The translations under genes and the position numbers were made by a program. A stretch of 64,000 bases of DNA. Source: Escherichia phage vB_EcoM_FJ1. The notes below the pieces were generated by a model that was given only the letters and a program-made list of their open reading frames with translations, did no database searches and was not told the DNA's origin. The stretch is taken from the sequence record MZ170040.1; one strand, written 5' to 3'. Shown one piece after another: positions 5,242 to 56,752 of this stretch; position 1 is the stretch's first letter; every line of letters begins with the position of its first letter.

Positions 5242-5271
5242 TTCATTCTCCAAATCCGTATCAGTAGTTGA

Positions 5272-5325
5272 TAGTTGTATAGTACCATGGAAGGACAAGG
5301 ATGTAAACCGTTTTGTGAAAAAATT
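5272..5325 (-). promoter_or_regulatory. early promoter (conserved family: -35 GTTTAC, 18-nt spacer, -10 TACTAT, AT-rich upstream)
   Basis: Minus-strand GTTTAC at 5308-5303 and TACTAT at 5284-5279; the same ~55-bp block recurs at least eight times in the window. Confidence 0.65.
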
Positions 5326-5395
5326 TTAATGAATCCAAAGGGTCCAGAATCATCTCTTTTTCATAAGTATAGATTTATATTACTTGTATGAAAAA

Positions 5396-34185: not shown

Positions 34186-34221
34186 TTTGTTTTCCGTTTA
34201 AGTGTTTGTTTTGATAGTTGT

Positions 34222-34251
34222 ATAGTACCATAAAGCTTTATGCTTGTAAAC
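34222..34251 (-). promoter_or_regulatory. early promoter (GTTTAC family)
   Basis: GTTTAC at 34251-34246, TACTAT at 34227-34222. Confidence 0.55.
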
Positions 34252-34281
34252 AGTTTTGTGAAAAATTTTTGAAATAAAAAA

Positions 34282-44269: not shown

Positions 44270-44743
44270 TTATTTGAATGATTTAACGTACTGAATAGAA
44301 CCCTTACTATTCACAAAGGCAATTTTACCATTTTTATTATACATGGTAGCAGTACGCTGATAACCATAGGTTTGTTTACCAGATTGATAACCAACTAATG
44401 CAAAATTATCTTCACCCATTTTATTCTGTTTAGCGCGAATGCGTTCATGACCATGTGCCATAAGAACCTTAGCATCACCAGTTGCAATGGATCGACGAGT
44501 TTTTTCATCTTCAACTGCATTAACAAAGTCGTCAAATGAATCAAATTTAGCATGAGATTTATTATACAATTTTCCATCTACTGCATAATTATATCCCTGT
44601 ACATCCATCTCAACTTCTGTACCATCATCCAATACAGCAGTAATTTTTTGACCTTTTTTAAATTTCAAAAGATCAGTAAAAGATTCAGCAATAATTTGAG
44701 AATTAATAGCTGCTTCAGTGATAAATTCTTGATATGTTTTCAT
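44270..44743 (-). CDS. internal-protein-like capsid protein with N-terminal capsid targeting sequence
   Basis: 157 aa beginning MKTYQEFITEA, matching the T4 CTS consensus MKTYQEFIAE; sits next to denV where T4 has ipII/ipIII. Confidence 0.6.
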   Translation of the reverse strand: MKTYQEFITEAAINSQIIAESFTDLLKFKKGQKITAVLDDGTEVEMDVQGYNYAVDGKLYNKSHAKFDSFDDFVNAVEDEKTRRSIATGDAKVLMAHGHERIRAKQNKMGEDNFALVGYQSGKQTYGYQRTATMYNKNGKIAFVNSKGSIQYVKSFK

Positions 44744-44752
44744 GGGTTTCCT

Positions 44753-45169
44753 TTAAATGTAAATATTTTTGCCGTAATACTTGTACCAGTGTGGCTTCAT
44801 TAAAATTTTTTCATCAAGTCGTTGTTGACTCAATTTAATAGCTGATTTGCATGGATTATAATCATTTTTCCATTCTATTGGAATATCGCTGATGTCAGGA
44901 ACTTCAGTATCTTTTATACTGAACCCGCGTTTTAAGCATTCCGTTATAATGTCTAATTGACGCTTTCGCAAAAATTCTAACTTATCGTAAAAGAACGTAA
45001 CATGGCCAGAACCTAAAATAAACTCGGAAGATATTTTAAAATCTTTAACGCGCTTACCGTTTGCCACATGCTTACGAACTATACCAAAAACACGCGGCAA
45101 TTCACGGTATTCTGCGATTAAATGTTGATCAGCAAGTTCAGATACTAAAGTCAAATTAATACGAGTCAT
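44753..45169 (-). CDS. denV: endonuclease V (pyrimidine-dimer DNA glycosylase)
   Basis: 138 aa; [17 protein letters not shown]...WYKYYG matches T4 DenV as recalled. Confidence 0.9.
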
Positions 45170-45228: not shown

Positions 45229-46197
<969 letters not shown>

Positions 46198-49162: not shown

Positions 49163-49438
49163 TTATTTCATATTATTGAAATATTCTTCTGCGATTTCGT
49201 CGTTATCATGGTAAACTTTAGAAGACAGTTTAACATAACTTTCAGCAGTGAACATGTTAATCACAACCTTTACAGTATACCACTGACCATCTTCATTACC
49301 CATTACTGCGTAAGTTTCAAACATCGGATGGTCAGGACCGATAACTTTAATATCATTCACTGTACGACCAAAATCTTCTGAAACACATTTCATAAAGAAG
49401 TTGAACAGTTCACCGTAATTATCCATTTCATTCTCCAA
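49163..49438 (-). CDS. hypothetical acidic protein
   Basis: 91-aa ORF directly downstream of an early promoter. Confidence 0.45.
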   Translation of the reverse strand: MENEMDNYGELFNFFMKCVSEDFGRTVNDIKVIGPDHPMFETYAVMGNEDGQWYTVKVVINMFTAESYVKLSSKVYHDNDEIAEEYFNNMK

Positions 49439-49469
49439 GTTGTTTTCTGTATCAGTAGTTGATAGTTGT

Positions 49470-49499
49470 ATAGTACCATGGAAGAACAGAGATGTAAAC
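49470..49499 (-). promoter_or_regulatory. early promoter (GTTTAC family)
   Basis: GTTTAC at 49499-49494, TACTAT at 49475-49470. Confidence 0.6.
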
Positions 49500-49637
49500 A
49501 GTTTTGTGAAAAAATTTTTAAAAAGTTTTAGGGAATTCTAGGGCAGGGAGGGGAAATCAAAGGATAGGATAATATATTATAAAGGGTATAAACTAAATGA
49601 TGCCTAGAGAGGCCCGGAAAGGCCTAGATACCAAAAA

Positions 49638-49659
49638 GCCCCAACCTTTTGGTCGGGGC
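49638..49659 (-). terminator. hairpin terminator (copy 1 of a duplicated 31-bp element)
   Basis: GCCCCAACC-TTTT-GGTCGGGGC preceded by AAAAA; near-identical copy at 50194-50215. Confidence 0.55.
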
Positions 49660-49667
49660 TAAGAATG

Positions 49668-49937
49668 TTATTTGATTTGTTTAGCAGACCAAATGCGATC
49701 TTTAATAATTTTTTGGATGTCTTCAACATACTCTAGGTCATGAGCATGTGGATTATCTTTGAAACTATGAGCTCGCGCAAGTTTCTGGCCTTCGGTCTTA
49801 ATTATCAAAAGTTCTTTAAGAATTGCTTCATACCTAGAGATAATTCCTTTAGCAATATTTTTTTTCTTGTGCTGCTTTAGGGTCAGCCTTAGGAGCAGGT
49901 TTACCTGAAGCCTTTGCAAAAGCAGCTCCAGTAGCAA
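49668..49937 (-). CDS. hypothetical protein (uncertain)
   Basis: 89-aa ORF overlapping the upstream gene by 89 nt. Confidence 0.3.
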   Translation of the reverse strand: MLLELLLQRLQVNLLLRLTLKQHKKKNIAKGIISRYEAILKELLIIKTEGQKLARAHSFKDNPHAHDLEYVEDIQKIIKDRIWSAKQIK

Positions 49938-50142
49938 CTAAACTTTTCCAGGCCATACTAACTGCATTTCCCGTAAATCCTTCCGCTTTCATGTCGCGTG
50001 CGAACTGGAATCGCGATTCATCGGAAGCATCTTTATAGGAATATTTACCCGCGGCAATGGCTGCTTTTGCGACAGCTTGAATTTCGGTGCTAGATGCTTC
50101 ATTTAACACCGCTTCATTTAAAAATTGAGCATATGATTTCAT
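49849..50142 (-). CDS. internal-protein-like protein with CTS-like N-terminus
   Basis: 97 aa beginning MKSYAQFLNEA (CTS-like M-K-[ST]-[YF]-x-[EQ]-F-[IL]-x-E-A), Ala/Lys-rich; late promoter TATAAATA 37 nt upstream. Confidence 0.55.
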   Translation of the reverse strand: MKSYAQFLNEAVLNEASSTEIQAVAKAAIAAGKYSYKDASDESRFQFARDMKAEGFTGNAVSMAWKSLVATGAAFAKASGKPAPKADPKAAQEKKYC

Positions 50143-50178
50143 CTTATTTCCTGTTTTAATTCGTGGTTTTAATATACT

Positions 50179-50186
50179 TATTTATA
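50179..50186 (-). promoter_or_regulatory. late promoter (TATAAATA)
   Basis: Minus-strand TATAAATA at 50186-50179. Confidence 0.5.
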
Positions 50187-50193
50187 CTAAAAA

Positions 50194-50215
50194 GCCCCAA
50201 CCTTTCGGTCGGGGC
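50194..50215 (-). terminator. hairpin terminator (copy 2)
   Basis: GCCCCAACC-TTTC-GGTCGGGGC; ends the stable-RNA/tRNA-Arg transcript region. Confidence 0.55.
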
Positions 50216-50530
50216 TAAGCCTTGCGGCAACCTTGTCGGGGTTCCACCTGCTAAGGCAAGTGTTTGTACGAAACGCCGGGACTTGAACCCGGTTATTAAG
50301 TAGTTGACGCTACTCAATATTTTTAAAAGGCCATATCTCGACCATATCCGAACGTTCCGTCAAAAACGCTACTCGGCTTACGGCAAAGATATTTCCTCGA
50401 ATCGATAATTCGGTGCGCCGTTTCTGCTGTGATGTAAGAGGGCATCAATAAACGCAAAGATTATTAACGCAATTCCTTACTCAGGGAGCATCAGTCCGAC
50501 GACTTACCGGTAGCGACCCGGTTTCTTGTC
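50216..50530 (-). ncRNA. stable small RNA region downstream of tRNA-Arg (T4 rnaC/rnaD-like), including a tRNA-like element
   Basis: About 315 nt with no ORF between tRNA-Arg and a terminator; minus strand 50359-50266 has a 7-bp acceptor-like stem (CGGAACG/CGTTTCG) and T-arm CCGGG-TTCAAGT-CCCGG but no canonical anticodon arm. Confidence 0.4.
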
Positions 50531-50607
<77 letters not shown>

Positions 50608-50610
50608 TAG

Positions 50611-51276
50611 TTAAAATTTCATTTTTCGACCTTTAAACCATCCTTCTGGAATTGGGTCAGTTTTCTTAATACGTTTAGAAACTTTTTCATCTAATGAATG
50701 AATCCACATCATACCAAATTGGGAATTCTTTTCACCTTTTTGGTGATTATTTTTAGCATGAATTTCTTTCATTTTATTAATAGTTTCAAGAGTATGATGC
50801 TTATTTAAAAATCGGCTATTATTTAAAAATTTTTCTTTGTATTCAGGAGTTGACCACAAACGGTTAAATACATTTGAACCATTTTTACGATATTTTTCTT
50901 GAAGTAAAATATCATTTTTAAAACGTGACTTAAACGATTTAGCTCCTTTTAAACTAGCGTCTTTCTTCTGATTTAGCATCTCAGGAATATTTATATGATC
51001 CCATCCACCTTCACCGCCAAGTTTTAAATTATACACATCAGGTCTATTTAAAAACTCTTCTGTGACAATATTTTTCTCGGCTTCAAGCATAGATTCTTTA
51101 TCATCAAAATACTCTAATATTTCTTTAGAAAAATTTTCTATGCCATACTTATCTTGGGCTCTTTTTAATAATTTACCAGAACCCATATATCCATCATCTA
51201 AATTTTCGGTAGAATGCACACCAATATAAATTTTATTATTAATTTTATTTGTTATTTTATAAAGATAAAAATGCAT
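50611..51276 (-). CDS. segB: GIY-YIG homing endonuclease SegB-like
   Basis: ATG at 51276 gives 222 aa beginning MHFYLYKITNKINNKIYIGV (GIY...YIG); lies inside the tRNA cluster as T4 segB does; the longer track ORF would overlap tRNA-Tyr. Confidence 0.7.
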   Translation of the reverse strand: MHFYLYKITNKINNKIYIGVHSTENLDDGYMGSGKLLKRAQDKYGIENFSKEILEYFDDKESMLEAEKNIVTEEFLNRPDVYNLKLGGEGGWDHINIPEMLNQKKDASLKGAKSFKSRFKNDILLQEKYRKNGSNVFNRLWSTPEYKEKFLNNSRFLNKHHTLETINKMKEIHAKNNHQKGEKNSQFGMMWIHSLDEKVSKRIKKTDPIPEGWFKGRKMKF

Positions 51277-51322
51277 ATCAGTCCCTAATAAAGAACTGAG
51301 CGTCTCACGACGAGTCATAAAT

Positions 51323-51409
51323 TGGTGGGGAGTGGTGGAGTCGAACCACCCGAGTCGCAATGACAATGGATTTACAGTCCACACCGCTACCTCTACGGGA
51401 TAACTCCCC
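51323..51409 (-). tRNA. type-II tRNA, anticodon GUA (tRNA-Tyr)
   Basis: Manual fold: acceptor GGGGAGT/ACTCCCC, anticodon loop CTGTAAA, long variable arm, T-arm GGTGG-TTCGACT-CCACC, CCA encoded; resembles E. coli tRNA-Tyr (GACUGUAAAUC, GUCAU). Confidence 0.65.
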
Positions 51410-51418
51410 TAATTAATT

Positions 51419-51495
51419 TGGTGACCCAGACCAGATTTGAACTGGTAACCTTTCCCTTATGAGGGGACTGCTGCTAACCATTGAGCTACAGGGCC
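51419..51495 (-). tRNA. tRNA with CAU anticodon (Ile lysidine-type, or Met)
   Basis: Acceptor GGCCCTG/CTGGGTC with one U-U mismatch, anticodon loop CTCATAA, T-loop TTCAAAT, CCA encoded; same position as T4 tRNA-Ile. Confidence 0.6.
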
Positions 51496-51496
51496 T

Positions 51497-51572
51497 TGGT
51501 GCTGATTGACGGAATCGAACCGCCGACCTTCTCATTACAAGTGAGTTGCTCTACCTACTGAGCTAAATCAGC
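51497..51572 (-). tRNA. tRNA-Thr (UGU)
   Basis: GCTGATTTAGCTCAGTAGGTAGAGC...CTTGTAAT...GGTTCGATTCC...AATCAGCACCA; canonical cloverleaf. Confidence 0.85.
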
Positions 51573-51574
51573 AA

Positions 51575-51661
51575 CGGAGGCGATAGGATTTGAACCTATG
51601 AGTCGCCGGAGCGACTGCCGGTTTTCAAGACCGGTGCATTAAACCACTCTGCCACGCCTCC
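51575..51661 (-). tRNA. tRNA-Ser (UGA), type II
   Basis: GGAGGCGTGGCAGAGTGGTTTAATGCACCGGTCTTGAAAACCGG... with long variable arm; matches T4 tRNA-Ser as recalled. Confidence 0.9.
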
Positions 51662-51663
51662 AG

Positions 51664-51737
51664 TCTCCGTGGCAGGATTTGAACCTACGACATTCTGCTC
51701 CCAAAGCAGACGCTCTACCAAACTGAGCTACACGGAG
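51664..51737 (-). tRNA. tRNA-Pro (UGG)
   Basis: Acceptor CTCCGTG/CACGGAG, anticodon loop TTTGGGA, T-loop TTCAAAT. Confidence 0.85.
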
Positions 51738-51747
51738 TAAATTAAAT

Positions 51748-51821
<74 letters not shown>

Positions 51822-51826
51822 AAATT

Positions 51827-51913
51827 TGGTGCGAGAAGTGGGACTCGAACCCACATGGAAATCATTCCGCAGCATTTTAAGTGCTGTGCCTTTACCAATT
51901 TGACCATTCTCGC
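51827..51913 (-). tRNA. tRNA-Leu (UAA), type II
   Basis: GCGAGAATGGTCAAATTGGTAAAGGCACAGCACTTAAAATGCTGC... with long variable arm; matches T4 tRNA-Leu as recalled. Confidence 0.9.
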
Positions 51914-51914
51914 G

Positions 51915-51987
51915 CTGGGAATAAAGGACTCGAACCTTTGCATCCTGGAATCAAAATCCAGTGCCTTACCAACTTGGCTAATTCCCA
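51915..51987 (-). tRNA. tRNA-Gln (UUG)
   Basis: Acceptor TGGGAAT/ATTCCCA, anticodon loop TTTGATT, T-loop TTCGAGT; abuts tRNA-Leu. Confidence 0.85.
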
Positions 51988-53018: not shown

Positions 53019-53306
53019 TTACAAAAGATTTTTAGCAATAATCTTGAGATGTGCCGCAGAAATGTGTTTAGCTTTAAACAACGCAGTTTCTTCAGCAGGA
53101 GAGATAACGATTGTAGCACCATCCTTTTTAGCAGACCACCCATCACCTAGGTAAACAGTACCTTTGATTTCTTCGCCATCAACCAGACTAATCATTGGTT
53201 TACCTTCTCGTCCTTTATTTGCTTTAATAACTTCAGAAGTAAGAGTAGCCTCGGTAATGGTAGAAACCGGGGTAGTTGTAGAAGTAAATTCTTTAAATGT
53301 TTTCAT
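53019..53306 (-). CDS. internal protein I-like (CTS-bearing) at the ipI locus
   Basis: 95 aa beginning MKTFKEF (CTS-like), Lys/Ala-rich; sits between the tRNA region and 57B where T4 has ipI; same length as T4 IPI. Confidence 0.6.
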   Translation of the reverse strand: MKTFKEFTSTTTPVSTITEATLTSEVIKANKGREGKPMISLVDGEEIKGTVYLGDGWSAKKDGATIVISPAEETALFKAKHISAAHLKIIAKNLL

Positions 53307-56300: not shown

Positions 56301-56752
56301 TATGCCCCCTTAAAGCCAAGAGCTCGTAATCCATCTTCTGTTAGAATTCTAAATTTTATTCCACGCTTTTCAGCTAAAGCTTGCGCTGCTTTCCATTTGT
56401 CGGTATTAACGGAATATGTATAAATTTCATTCATAAATCTTTTCTTCGCTGCAGTTGTTAGATGTGCTGGTTTAACTGGTGGTTGTGTTTCTTTTTTAGG
56501 TTTTATTTCAATAAAAAATTCTTGTCCAGAAGAATCTTTCATCCAAATATCCATGAAGTATCTACGTTTTTTCCCTTCTGCATTACAAAAATAAGGAATT
56601 ACTGCTGTTTCACTACCCCATGCAATAATTTCTGGATTTTTATCTAACCATTCAAAAAAGAATTTTTCCCAATTTGATCTATACGTAATTTTTTTAGGGT
56701 CACCTCTATATTTTGATATATTTTTAGGAACCCATTTTCCAGAATATGCCAT
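56300..56752 (-). CDS. 4: head completion protein gp4
   Basis: 150-aa ORF, same size and position as T4 gp4; start overlaps the gp2 region. Confidence 0.8.

Follow-up and report, generated by a model that had tools for sequence, protein, structure and literature searches.

Results

Two copies of one terminator bracket a small gene

The subject of this work is a small gene and its two flanking terminators, located at positions 49,628–50,219 of a 64,000-nucleotide (nt) stretch of DNA from Escherichia phage vB_EcoM_FJ1 (hereinafter FJ1; record MZ170040.1). The whole stretch of 64,000 nt is hereinafter designated the window, and the gene with its flanking signals the cassette. The window belongs to a T4-like phage (Tequatrovirus), and all genes around the cassette are on the minus strand. 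The order of transcription is tRNA cluster (51987..50531, interrupted by a SegB-type GIY-YIG gene), rnaD, rnaC, cassette, e.8, e.7, and e.6. A search with 881 nt across the cassette matched 679 phage records at 80–98% identity (best 98%), nearly all of them from T4-like phages of Escherichia, Shigella, and Yersinia. The variable site that holds the cassette is bounded upstream by rnaC (about 50267-50405, minus strand; coordinates transferred from the T4 and Aplg8 annotations) and downstream by the early promoter of e.8, which is of the sigma-70 type (TTTACA-17-TACTAT; 49470..49498, minus strand) and precedes the e.8 coding region (49426..49163, minus strand).

The cassette is bracketed by a direct repeat of 36 nt, 34 of which are identical between 49628-49663 and 50184-50219. 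A 31-nt core, AAAAAGCCCCAACCTTTTGGTCGGGGCTAAG, occupies 49633-49663 and recurs in a one-mismatch version at 50189-50219. Near-identical terminator copies had been placed at exactly these core coordinates by the first-pass annotation of the sequence; they are present, with the one mismatch, and extend to the 36 nt given above. A third copy of the core is absent from the window at three or fewer mismatches, and none of 100 shuffles gave a match.

On the minus strand, each copy reads AGCCCCGACC-(G/A)AAA-GGTTGGGGCT followed by TTTTT, and forms a 10-bp stem with seven G-C pairs and a 4-nt loop. The RNA fold energies of the two copies are −19.7 and −20.3 kcal/mol, with z-scores of −4.3 and −3.6. Both copies have the attributes of an intrinsic terminator, namely a GC-rich stem-loop, an adjoining U-run, and a stability above that of shuffled sequence, and the annotations of phages fPS-2 and Aplg8 show terminators at the same two sites. 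The upstream copy (copy A; 50184..50219, minus strand) has its stem-loop at 50216..50193, its T-run at 50192..50188, and 4–5 shared flanking nt on each side. It is the terminator of the tRNA/rnaD/rnaC unit, its placement relative to rnaC following from homology with the T4 and Aplg8 annotations. The downstream copy (copy B; 49628..49663, minus strand), with its stem-loop at 49660..49637 and its T-run at 49636..49632, is the terminator of the cassette gene. Because the copies share not only the hairpin but also their flanks, CTTA before the stem and (A/G)GTAT after the T-run, the comparison points to a common origin of the two terminators rather than to convergence on terminator shape.

A T4-type late-promoter motif, TATAAATA, matches exactly at 50179..50186 (minus strand), extending from 2 nt past the copy A T-run to 36 nt ahead of the cassette gene's ATG. 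A Shine-Dalgarno sequence, AGGAAA (50147..50152, minus strand), is located 4 nt before this ATG, at 50142. The same arrangement, GGGGCTTTTT(A/G)GTATAAATA, is also found in fPS-2, Aplg8, PinkRuby, IMG/VR loci, and Klebsiella phage KP1. The motif by itself is unremarkable, with nine exact occurrences on the minus strand of the AT-rich window versus about eight expected, but its position directly past the terminator is kept in relatives, including one of another genus, which supports the earlier proposal that the gene has its own, putative, late promoter.

The two open reading frames are halves of one frameshifted gene

Between the two terminators, the first-pass annotation had described a 97-amino-acid (aa) open reading frame (ORF; 50142..49849) and an overlapping 89-aa ORF (49937..49668). 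Both exist, but they are halves of a single 157-aa gene, and there is no second gene. Specifically, fPS-2 and Aplg8 are colinear with the window and about 98% identical to it, save that the window has CAAG-A8-TATTGC where both relatives have A7. Because the relatives are colinear except for A7 versus A8, the 97-aa and 89-aa ORFs are one frameshifted gene with an intact length of 153–157 aa. In fPS-2 this gene, g131c, is a single coding sequence of 474 nt and 157 aa.

The 97-aa ORF (49849..50142, minus strand) contains codons 1–93 of the family gene, covering a propeptide (MKSYAQFLNE|A), a three-helix domain, and a linker rich in Pro, Lys, and Ala, and ends with an out-of-frame KYC and a stop codon. 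The A8 homopolymer (T8 on the plus strand) is located at 49858..49865, and its extra A causes the frameshift. The true C-terminal 63 codons and stop codon (NIAKGIISRYEA...SAKQIK) follow in another frame at 49668..49859 (minus strand). The 89-aa ORF (49937..49668, minus strand) consists of these displaced 63 codons and 26 spurious upstream codons. A three-frame reading of the window shows that, after residue 93, the protein goes on flawlessly as NIAKGIISRY...SAKQIK in the next reading frame. Removal of a single A restores an intact gene, the 3' half of which is the same as in fPS-2 at every nucleotide.

An intact ORF of 153–157 aa is present at all 12 other loci examined. Across alleles with synonymous divergence (dS) of 0.3 to >1, the ratio of non-synonymous to synonymous substitution rates (dN/dS) is 0.03–0.19 for the N-terminal half and 0.01–0.12 for the C-terminal half, the part lost in FJ1. 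Because dN/dS is low in both halves, the cassette gene is a real coding gene under purifying selection. FJ1 itself can make only the 97-aa product, namely the propeptide and the N-terminal domain, unless slippage restores the frame. The anatomy of the repeat and the one-gene alignment together bear out the description of the cassette as a single-gene unit bounded by two copies of one terminator.

The site holds zero, one, or two genes in different phages

In T4, 284 nt separate e.8 from rnaC, and this interval contains a single hairpin and no cassette gene. Specifically, in T4 the left flank of copy A runs straight into the right flank of copy B and no other sequence is lacking, and PST and T6 have the same structure. 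The survey of related phages thereby found the presence/absence polymorphism that had been predicted, with exactly one terminator copy at the empty sites of T4, T6, and PST.

A junction probe was applied to 603 matching records. About 7 of 60 sampled records (~12%) were empty, and in most of the others the junction was split by about 556 nt. The cassette gene is present in 404 records at >80% nucleotide identity and, by tblastn, in 511 records, other genera included. Carriers number about 400 of roughly 600 to 680 Tequatrovirus-type records, or roughly two thirds.

In 165 records, a second gene with a leader resembling a capsid-targeting sequence (CTS) is located directly downstream. This gene encodes 187 aa, starts with MKTYAEFLTEAAK, and also matches phrog_2280, the PHROGs family of the cassette protein. 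It was found at 1728-2291 of the PinkRuby locus (L007), and also in loci L010, L011, L016, L026, and L027. Upstream of it is the motif AATAAATA, which agrees with the late-promoter motif at seven of eight positions, and downstream is a different hairpin terminator of its own, CCCTATC...GATAGGG. Comparison of the three states of the site places all boundaries at GGGGCTTTTT or GGGCTTTTT, where a terminator has its 3' end.

The cassette was more likely lost in T4 than recently inserted

Two other genera have homologues at this site. The homologue of Klebsiella phage KP1 (Jiaodavirus) directly follows a tRNA cluster and is preceded by AGCCCCGTC-TTCG-GACGGGGCTTTTTAGTATAAATA, that is, by a hairpin and TATAAATA; downstream of it are a hairpin that is unrelated and, next, a stretch with homology to the e.8 promoter region. 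Yersinia phage fHe-Yen9-01 (Tegunavirus) has genes of 189 and 178 aa with the same leader just before its e.6 homologue. The presence of homologues at this site in both Jiaodavirus and Tegunavirus and the predominance of carriers make the family more likely an old resident of the site than a recent arrival; for the empty state of T4, T6, and PST, a deletion between the duplicated terminators is the simplest explanation.

The opposite direction is a recent insertion, in which the cassette would have entered a vacant T4-like site through recombination at the terminator already there, the donor being, for example, a mini-circle or a co-infecting phage. The structure is indeed that of an insertion that duplicates its target, with one copy in T4, two in carriers, and a period equal to the cassette length, and the model put forward for stem-loop-flanked cassettes of T4-like phages (PMC2839356) permits both directions. 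The stems of the repeat can also be read in its favour: PinkRuby has the same variant stem in both copies, and locus L009 has one of each type. Nevertheless, the homologues in two other genera, the large majority of carriers, and the divergence of site alleles to dS >1, which implies long residence, make recent insertion unlikely. The match of copy B to copy A may reflect gene conversion or an older swap at the hairpin. Recombination at the terminator, as originally suggested for this cassette, is consistent with a polymorphism joined precisely at the repeat, but its direction was probably loss and not insertion.

In fHe-Yen9-01 (locus L018), a 52-aa ORF at 1200-1358 has a CTS-like leader, MKTYIEFINEIIVKSGDK..., and is located upstream of the short stretch that precedes the 189-aa and 178-aa gene pair. 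The translations of spurious ORFs in that stretch look tRNA-like.

A8 alleles recur on different haplotypes, probably by slippage

The 404 records were sampled at a spread, which gave about 48 full-length matches of 474 nt (A7), three with one additional base (EC128, SF2-1, and OE5505), and one, F26, with one base fewer. The out-of-frame share of the sample is about 8%, and about 92% are intact. A 79-nt probe detected A8 in bov10K1 and Pu-Krd-SF4, and A7 in bov9_1 and Pu-Krd-SF3, which are nearly identical to them. In the index of a public collection, 43 blocks contain the exact 97-aa product, which occurs on 19 contigs, and another 97-aa variant occurs on nine contigs. We read ten loci, taken from an isolate, from ENA metagenomes, and from Logan SRA assemblies. 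All ten have A8, on at least five haplotypes that are up to 39 of 475 nt apart, in both single-gene and two-gene contexts, and the displaced 63-codon frame is open in every one. There are also matching A7 haplotypes. Further breaks comprise A8 in a diverged allele, and products of 108 and 111 aa that are consistent with a one-base deletion at the A-run. The most economical reading is that A8 arises by recurrent slippage at a hotspot in a dispensable gene.

An alternative is an error of sequencing or assembly in MZ170040.1, with the phage itself carrying an intact 157-aa gene. The difference is a single base in a homopolymer, the 3' half of the gene is otherwise identical to that of fPS-2, and the sister records named above differ from each other only at the A-run. 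Because A8 recurs in independent assemblies on several haplotypes, a recording error is unlikely as a general explanation. For FJ1, too, we regard it as an unlikely source of the extra A: the same A8 allele is found in many independent assemblies, metagenomes included, the window has no other candidate homopolymer frameshift, and the A7 run of gene 4 described below is free of indels in 46 of 46 close relatives.

The composition of the window is relevant to the fate of the run. A/T runs of seven or longer number two, versus 64 ± 7 expected from a first-order Markov model, and runs of six or more number 67 versus 175 expected; long homopolymers are strongly avoided in the FJ1 genome. The two long runs are the A8 of the cassette gene (49858-49865) and an A7 at 56689-56695, in codons 19–21 of the essential head-completion gene 4. 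The A-run of the cassette gene is kept in all Tequatrovirus-type alleles, including loci L014 and L015, in which adjacent synonymous sites have changed. Indels were found in 0 of 46 close relatives at the gene 4 run versus 4 of about 52 at the cassette run, a contrast that is underpowered and not significant.

A tract-length polymorphism that toggles the reading frame on different haplotypes is what characterizes a contingency locus. The A-run may accordingly be a hypermutable ON/OFF switch that is maintained, or else two isoforms may arise there by slippage, with populations always mixed. The at least five A8 haplotypes, the open C-terminal frame in each of the ten loci, and the near-identical pairs bov9_1/bov10K1 and Pu-Krd-SF3/SF4 that differ at the A-run all fit such a switch. 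So does retention of the run in a genome depleted of long A/T runs, and the dN/dS of the C-terminal half is so low that a synonymous change removing the hazard would seem favoured. On the other hand, A7 is found in about 92% of deposited genomes, a dispensable gene that is lost recently and repeatedly would look no different, and distant homologues lack the QEKN segment. Retention could also be codon bias in a few lineages, GAA AAA AAT being presumably preferred at 35% G+C, and the gene 4 control has too little power. A maintained switch is therefore, in our judgement, distinctly unlikely, and we retain recurrent slippage as the reading of A8.

The leader matches the T4 capsid-targeting sequence

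The 97-aa ORF starts with MKSYAQFLNEA, compared with MKTYQEFIAEA for IPII and IPIII of T4. The first ten residues of IPIII suffice for capsid targeting (PMC9026906, a review of the Black laboratory's work). Residues 4 and 7 of the CTS determine targeting and residues 8 and 10 determine processing, with gp21 cutting after Glu in L/I-x-E (PMC9026906). Both targeting determinants, Y4 and F7, are present in the ORF. The gp21 processing motif is matched by L8-N9-E10|A11, and a second time by L13-N14-E15|A16. All family members recovered retain Y or F at position 4 and F at position 7, with a one-residue shift in a few, and the pattern [YF]4..F7-[LV]8-x-E10 persists in homologues of Klebsiella and Yersinia phages that are only 38–43% identical overall. 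The CTS-like N-terminus noted at first sight of the sequence is borne out in that all mapped T4 CTS positions match and are conserved across the family. In the whole 64-kb window, only two ORFs have the strict CTS pattern, namely the cassette ORF and an IpIV-type gene (44743..44270).

An orthologue has been detected in virions. Yersinia phage fD1 g140 is an intact 157-aa orthologue that directly adjoins e.8 and, by our own count, differs from the repaired window protein at nine amino acids. It is listed as a particle-associated protein (PPAP) in liquid chromatography coupled to tandem mass spectrometry (LC-MS/MS) of purified virions, with no T4 counterpart (PMC8309999 Table S3). The higher PPAP tier comprises proteins with at least two peptides and a spectral count of at least two (PMC8309999). 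The neighbours g138 and g139 (e.8) are not flagged in the virion list (PMC8309999 Table S3). The first-pass annotation had expected virion association of the cassette protein; the finding of g140 in purified virions agrees with it, with the qualification that fD1 is another phage than FJ1 and that the list also holds non-structural proteins. Because of those non-structural proteins, the label 'particle-associated' is weak evidence for specific packaging, and the particle association in fD1 is supportive, not decisive. Taken with the leader, it is consistent with the cassette gene being a late gene for a protein that is probably packaged in the capsid and injected into the host.

The cassette protein belongs to a family without annotated function

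A PHROGs search assigns the cassette protein to phrog_2280, which is annotated as 'unknown function', and the intact protein has no match in Pfam or NCBIfam. A word-indexed search returned 13 family proteins. An exhaustive profile search of 1.84 billion representative proteins, a library without annotation, returned 13 clusters and no wider superfamily. The named family members found in other searches all belong to T4-like phages.

The AlphaFold2 model of the intact protein (mean predicted local distance difference test score, pLDDT, of 73) is all-helical. It contains a three-helix domain (residues 18–75), the linker rich in Pro, Lys, and Ala, and a long helical hairpin (residues 88–154). Residues 1–15, the leader, are modelled as disordered and are the sole stretch with a pLDDT below 50. 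A Foldseek search with the model against PDB and BFVD found nothing beyond the family itself. The mature body contains K/R and D/E in roughly equal number (own count) and is not markedly basic.

The T-even internal proteins (Ips) IpI, IpII, IpIII, IpIV, IpV, and IpVI each match their own 'internal protein' PHROG, and the cassette gene has no homology to any named Ip family; in none of the records examined is the family annotated as Ip. Because the known Ips are not homologous to one another either, this missing homology does not argue against membership of the functional class. Two candidate relatives were examined. The 'IpIV' of PST has the same length (157 aa) and is an unrelated protein. 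The 187-aa neighbour was considered as a paralogue of the 157-aa family; although both match phrog_2280, the hhalign comparison is not significant, and we claim for the pair only the leader and the PHROG grouping.

That the product is instead an ordinary late cytoplasmic accessory protein that stays outside the capsid, with a CTS likeness that is incidental or stems from shared translation-initiation sequences, would agree with the lack of a link to any virion protein in Pfam, NCBIfam, and structure searches and with the clear presence of non-structural proteins in the fD1 PPAP list, but is quite improbable in view of the match at all four mapped CTS positions, their conservation in proteins that have otherwise diverged to about 40% identity, the same leader on the neighbouring 187-aa and 189-aa genes, the predicted disorder of the propeptide region, and the place of the fD1 orthologue in the higher-confidence tier when g138 and g139 (e.8) are not flagged.

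A model for the cassette

We propose that the locus is a 556-bp late-gene cassette, in which a late promoter and a ribosome-binding site are followed by one gene and another terminator copy, at a variable site between the rnaC terminator and the e.8 promoter. We consider this explanation as a whole, mechanism included, to be probable. It starts from the anatomy of the site, the frameshift, the site polymorphism, purifying selection, synteny in other genera, and the detection of an orthologue in virions, and adds to them a predicted late transcription, gp21 cleavage, injection, anti-defence role, and recombination mechanism.

In the model, the protein would be made late and recruited into the prohead core via its propeptide. 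The prohead protease gp21 would then trim it after Glu10 and/or Glu15, and the trimmed protein would stay in the DNA-filled head and be injected with the DNA. In the host it would probably neutralise a defence, by analogy with Ip1, Ip2, and Ip3, which act on distinct GmrSD type IV restriction enzymes. The terminator copies, homologous over 31–36 bp, and the GGGGCTTTTT ends that neighbouring terminators have in common would serve as recombination points. The site would thus alternate between zero, one, and two such genes, with T4, T6, and PST representing the deleted state.

Several points weigh against this model. The full-length protein is not encoded in FJ1 itself. Searches of Pfam, NCBIfam, and PHROGs, and of PDB and BFVD with Foldseek, found no similarity in sequence or fold to a known Ip or anti-defence protein. 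Late transcription, gp21 cleavage, and injection are predictions for every family member; the exact TATAAATA motif occurs in the window at about chance frequency, and the fD1 virion list comprises 113 proteins, including DenV, lysozyme, and NudE (PMC8309999). As for the recombination mechanism, the hairpins that flank the KP1 homologue are not copies of each other, and because they differ, the duplicated terminator is specific to Tequatrovirus. Crossover mapping from two diagnostic repeat positions failed, as both positions are polymorphic among genomes.

A bolder version would combine two claims, that the rnaC–e.8 site is a third Ip locus holding zero to two genes of a new family of injected proteins, and that the A7 tract is a selected hypermutable switch; we give this combination little credence. 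If it were true, the switch would keep populations mixed for the full-length protein, for example where one host defence senses the protein and another is blocked by it.

Neighbouring features of the window

Upstream of the site, rnaD (about 50412-50530, minus strand; coordinates transferred from the T4 and Aplg8 annotations) is a stable RNA that follows tRNA-Arg (50531-50607, minus strand), and the latter precedes both rnaD and rnaC. An Rfam scan found tRNAs only, with no family for rnaC or rnaD and no riboswitch or small-RNA model that would explain the repeat. The tRNA cluster has tRNA-Tyr and tRNA-Met, as in T6 and PST; T4 has tRNA-Ile instead.

An ORF for a SegB-type GIY-YIG homing endonuclease is located between tRNA-Arg and tRNA-Tyr (50611-51409). 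Its longest version, with a GTG start at 51384, overlaps tRNA-Tyr (51323-51409). Because this longest ORF reads into tRNA-Tyr, the true start codon probably lies more internally. A recent report describes SegB as driving segmental amplification of the tRNA locus in T6 (PMC13096335). That the endonuclease might stimulate recombination at the cassette site is only a thought.

Downstream of the site, 70 nt around the e.8 early promoter (49449-49518) recur with 94% identity at 5258-5327, about 44 kb away, and shorter pieces of the same stretch occur at about 32030, 34220-34270, and 38250. These recurring stretches are probably an extended, highly conserved T4 early-promoter consensus.

The window also contains other Ip genes. 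The IpIV-type gene (44270-44743) starts with MKTYQEFITEAA... and differs from PST IpIV by one amino acid in the translations. FJ1 lacks ipII and ipIII; there, lysozyme gene e (45229-45723) is followed by denV (44753-45169) and then by the IpIV-type gene. Just upstream of the lysozyme start (45723), the minus strand has a pair of TATAAATA motifs spaced 13 nt apart (starts 45757 and 45744; 45744-45764). A T4-type ipI is present at 53019-53306. In two diverged relatives, L012 (221-719) and L015 (2-500), internal protein genes of 74 aa (phrog_8765) and 90 aa (phrog_7673) are located about 2 kb upstream of the cassette gene. Because the distance is only about 2 kb, the ipI-type locus and the cassette site are close neighbours in these relatives.

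Discussion

Our analysis has consequences for annotation and for the search for anti-defence proteins. The 97-aa and 89-aa ORFs, and like split calls in dozens of records, are to be merged as one frameshifted gene. The family escaped naming probably because T4 and T6 lack the gene. Each further CTS-bearing family is a candidate anti-defence protein, and other Ip-locus genes are starting to show similar phenotypes. The site also shows how terminator repeats of 31–36 bp allow the gain or loss of a single gene without disturbing neighbouring transcription.

The closest functional parallel is with the T-even Ips. Ip1, Ip2, and Ip3 each inhibit a different GmrSD, and two Ip loci have been described (PMC12373910, Silas et al. 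2025). Phage Bas37 requires one of its ipI-locus genes only on a K-12 strain with the type IV restriction systems still in place. Similar to the T-even Ips, the cassette gene is a small non-essential, putatively late gene with a leader of about ten residues in which position 4 is Y/F, position 7 is F, and positions 8–11 are L/I-x-E|A. Its body is unrelated to other Ips, it is present or absent among close relatives, its neighbours have the same leader, and an orthologue is listed as particle-associated. Unlike the T-even Ips, it is located at the rnaC–e.8 site, which is neither the ipI locus (trna.4 to 57B) nor the ipII/ipIII locus next to e. It also differs from them in belonging to the unnamed phrog_2280 family, in not being markedly basic, and in being frameshifted in FJ1, and its processing and injection are predictions and its target hypothetical.

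The closest structural parallel is with the early-promoter/stem-loop (PeSL) cassettes. Homologous recombination excises cassettes flanked by stem-loops, and Mosig's deletions in T4, which occur at GGGC/GCCC motifs, are cited in this connection (PMC2839356, Arbiol et al. 2010). Like a PeSL cassette (PMC2839356; Comeau et al. 2014, PMC4122927), the FJ1 cassette is a variable ORF in a hyperplastic region between two copies of a GC-rich (GCCCC...GGGGC) stem-loop. In both cases a single copy is found in relatives without the ORF, and recombination between copies is the obvious route of excision or insertion. The repeats themselves differ: the repeat of the FJ1 cassette is a terminator only (31–36 nt), whereas the PeSL repeat is a composite of about 100 bp with a sigma-70 early promoter. 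Moreover, copy A is followed by a putative late promoter, and the nearest early promoter (49498..49470) is about 140 nt beyond copy B, outside the repeat.

The A-run has parallels of its own. Frameshift hotspots at A-runs are known from the rII and e genes of T4 (Streisinger's model), and homopolymer contingency loci are exemplified by the poly-G tracts of Campylobacter phages. As in such loci, the cassette gene has a run in its coding region with natural +1 (and −1-consistent) off variants that recur on different haplotypes. It differs from them in that the tract is short (A7), in that the gene encodes a putative injected protein and not a receptor-binding protein, and in that selected or reversible switching is here a hypothesis.

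Terminator-bounded cassettes and polymorphic internal proteins are both familiar kinds. What is new is a candidate internal-protein family at what would be a third Ip locus, one that has apparently gone unrecognised.

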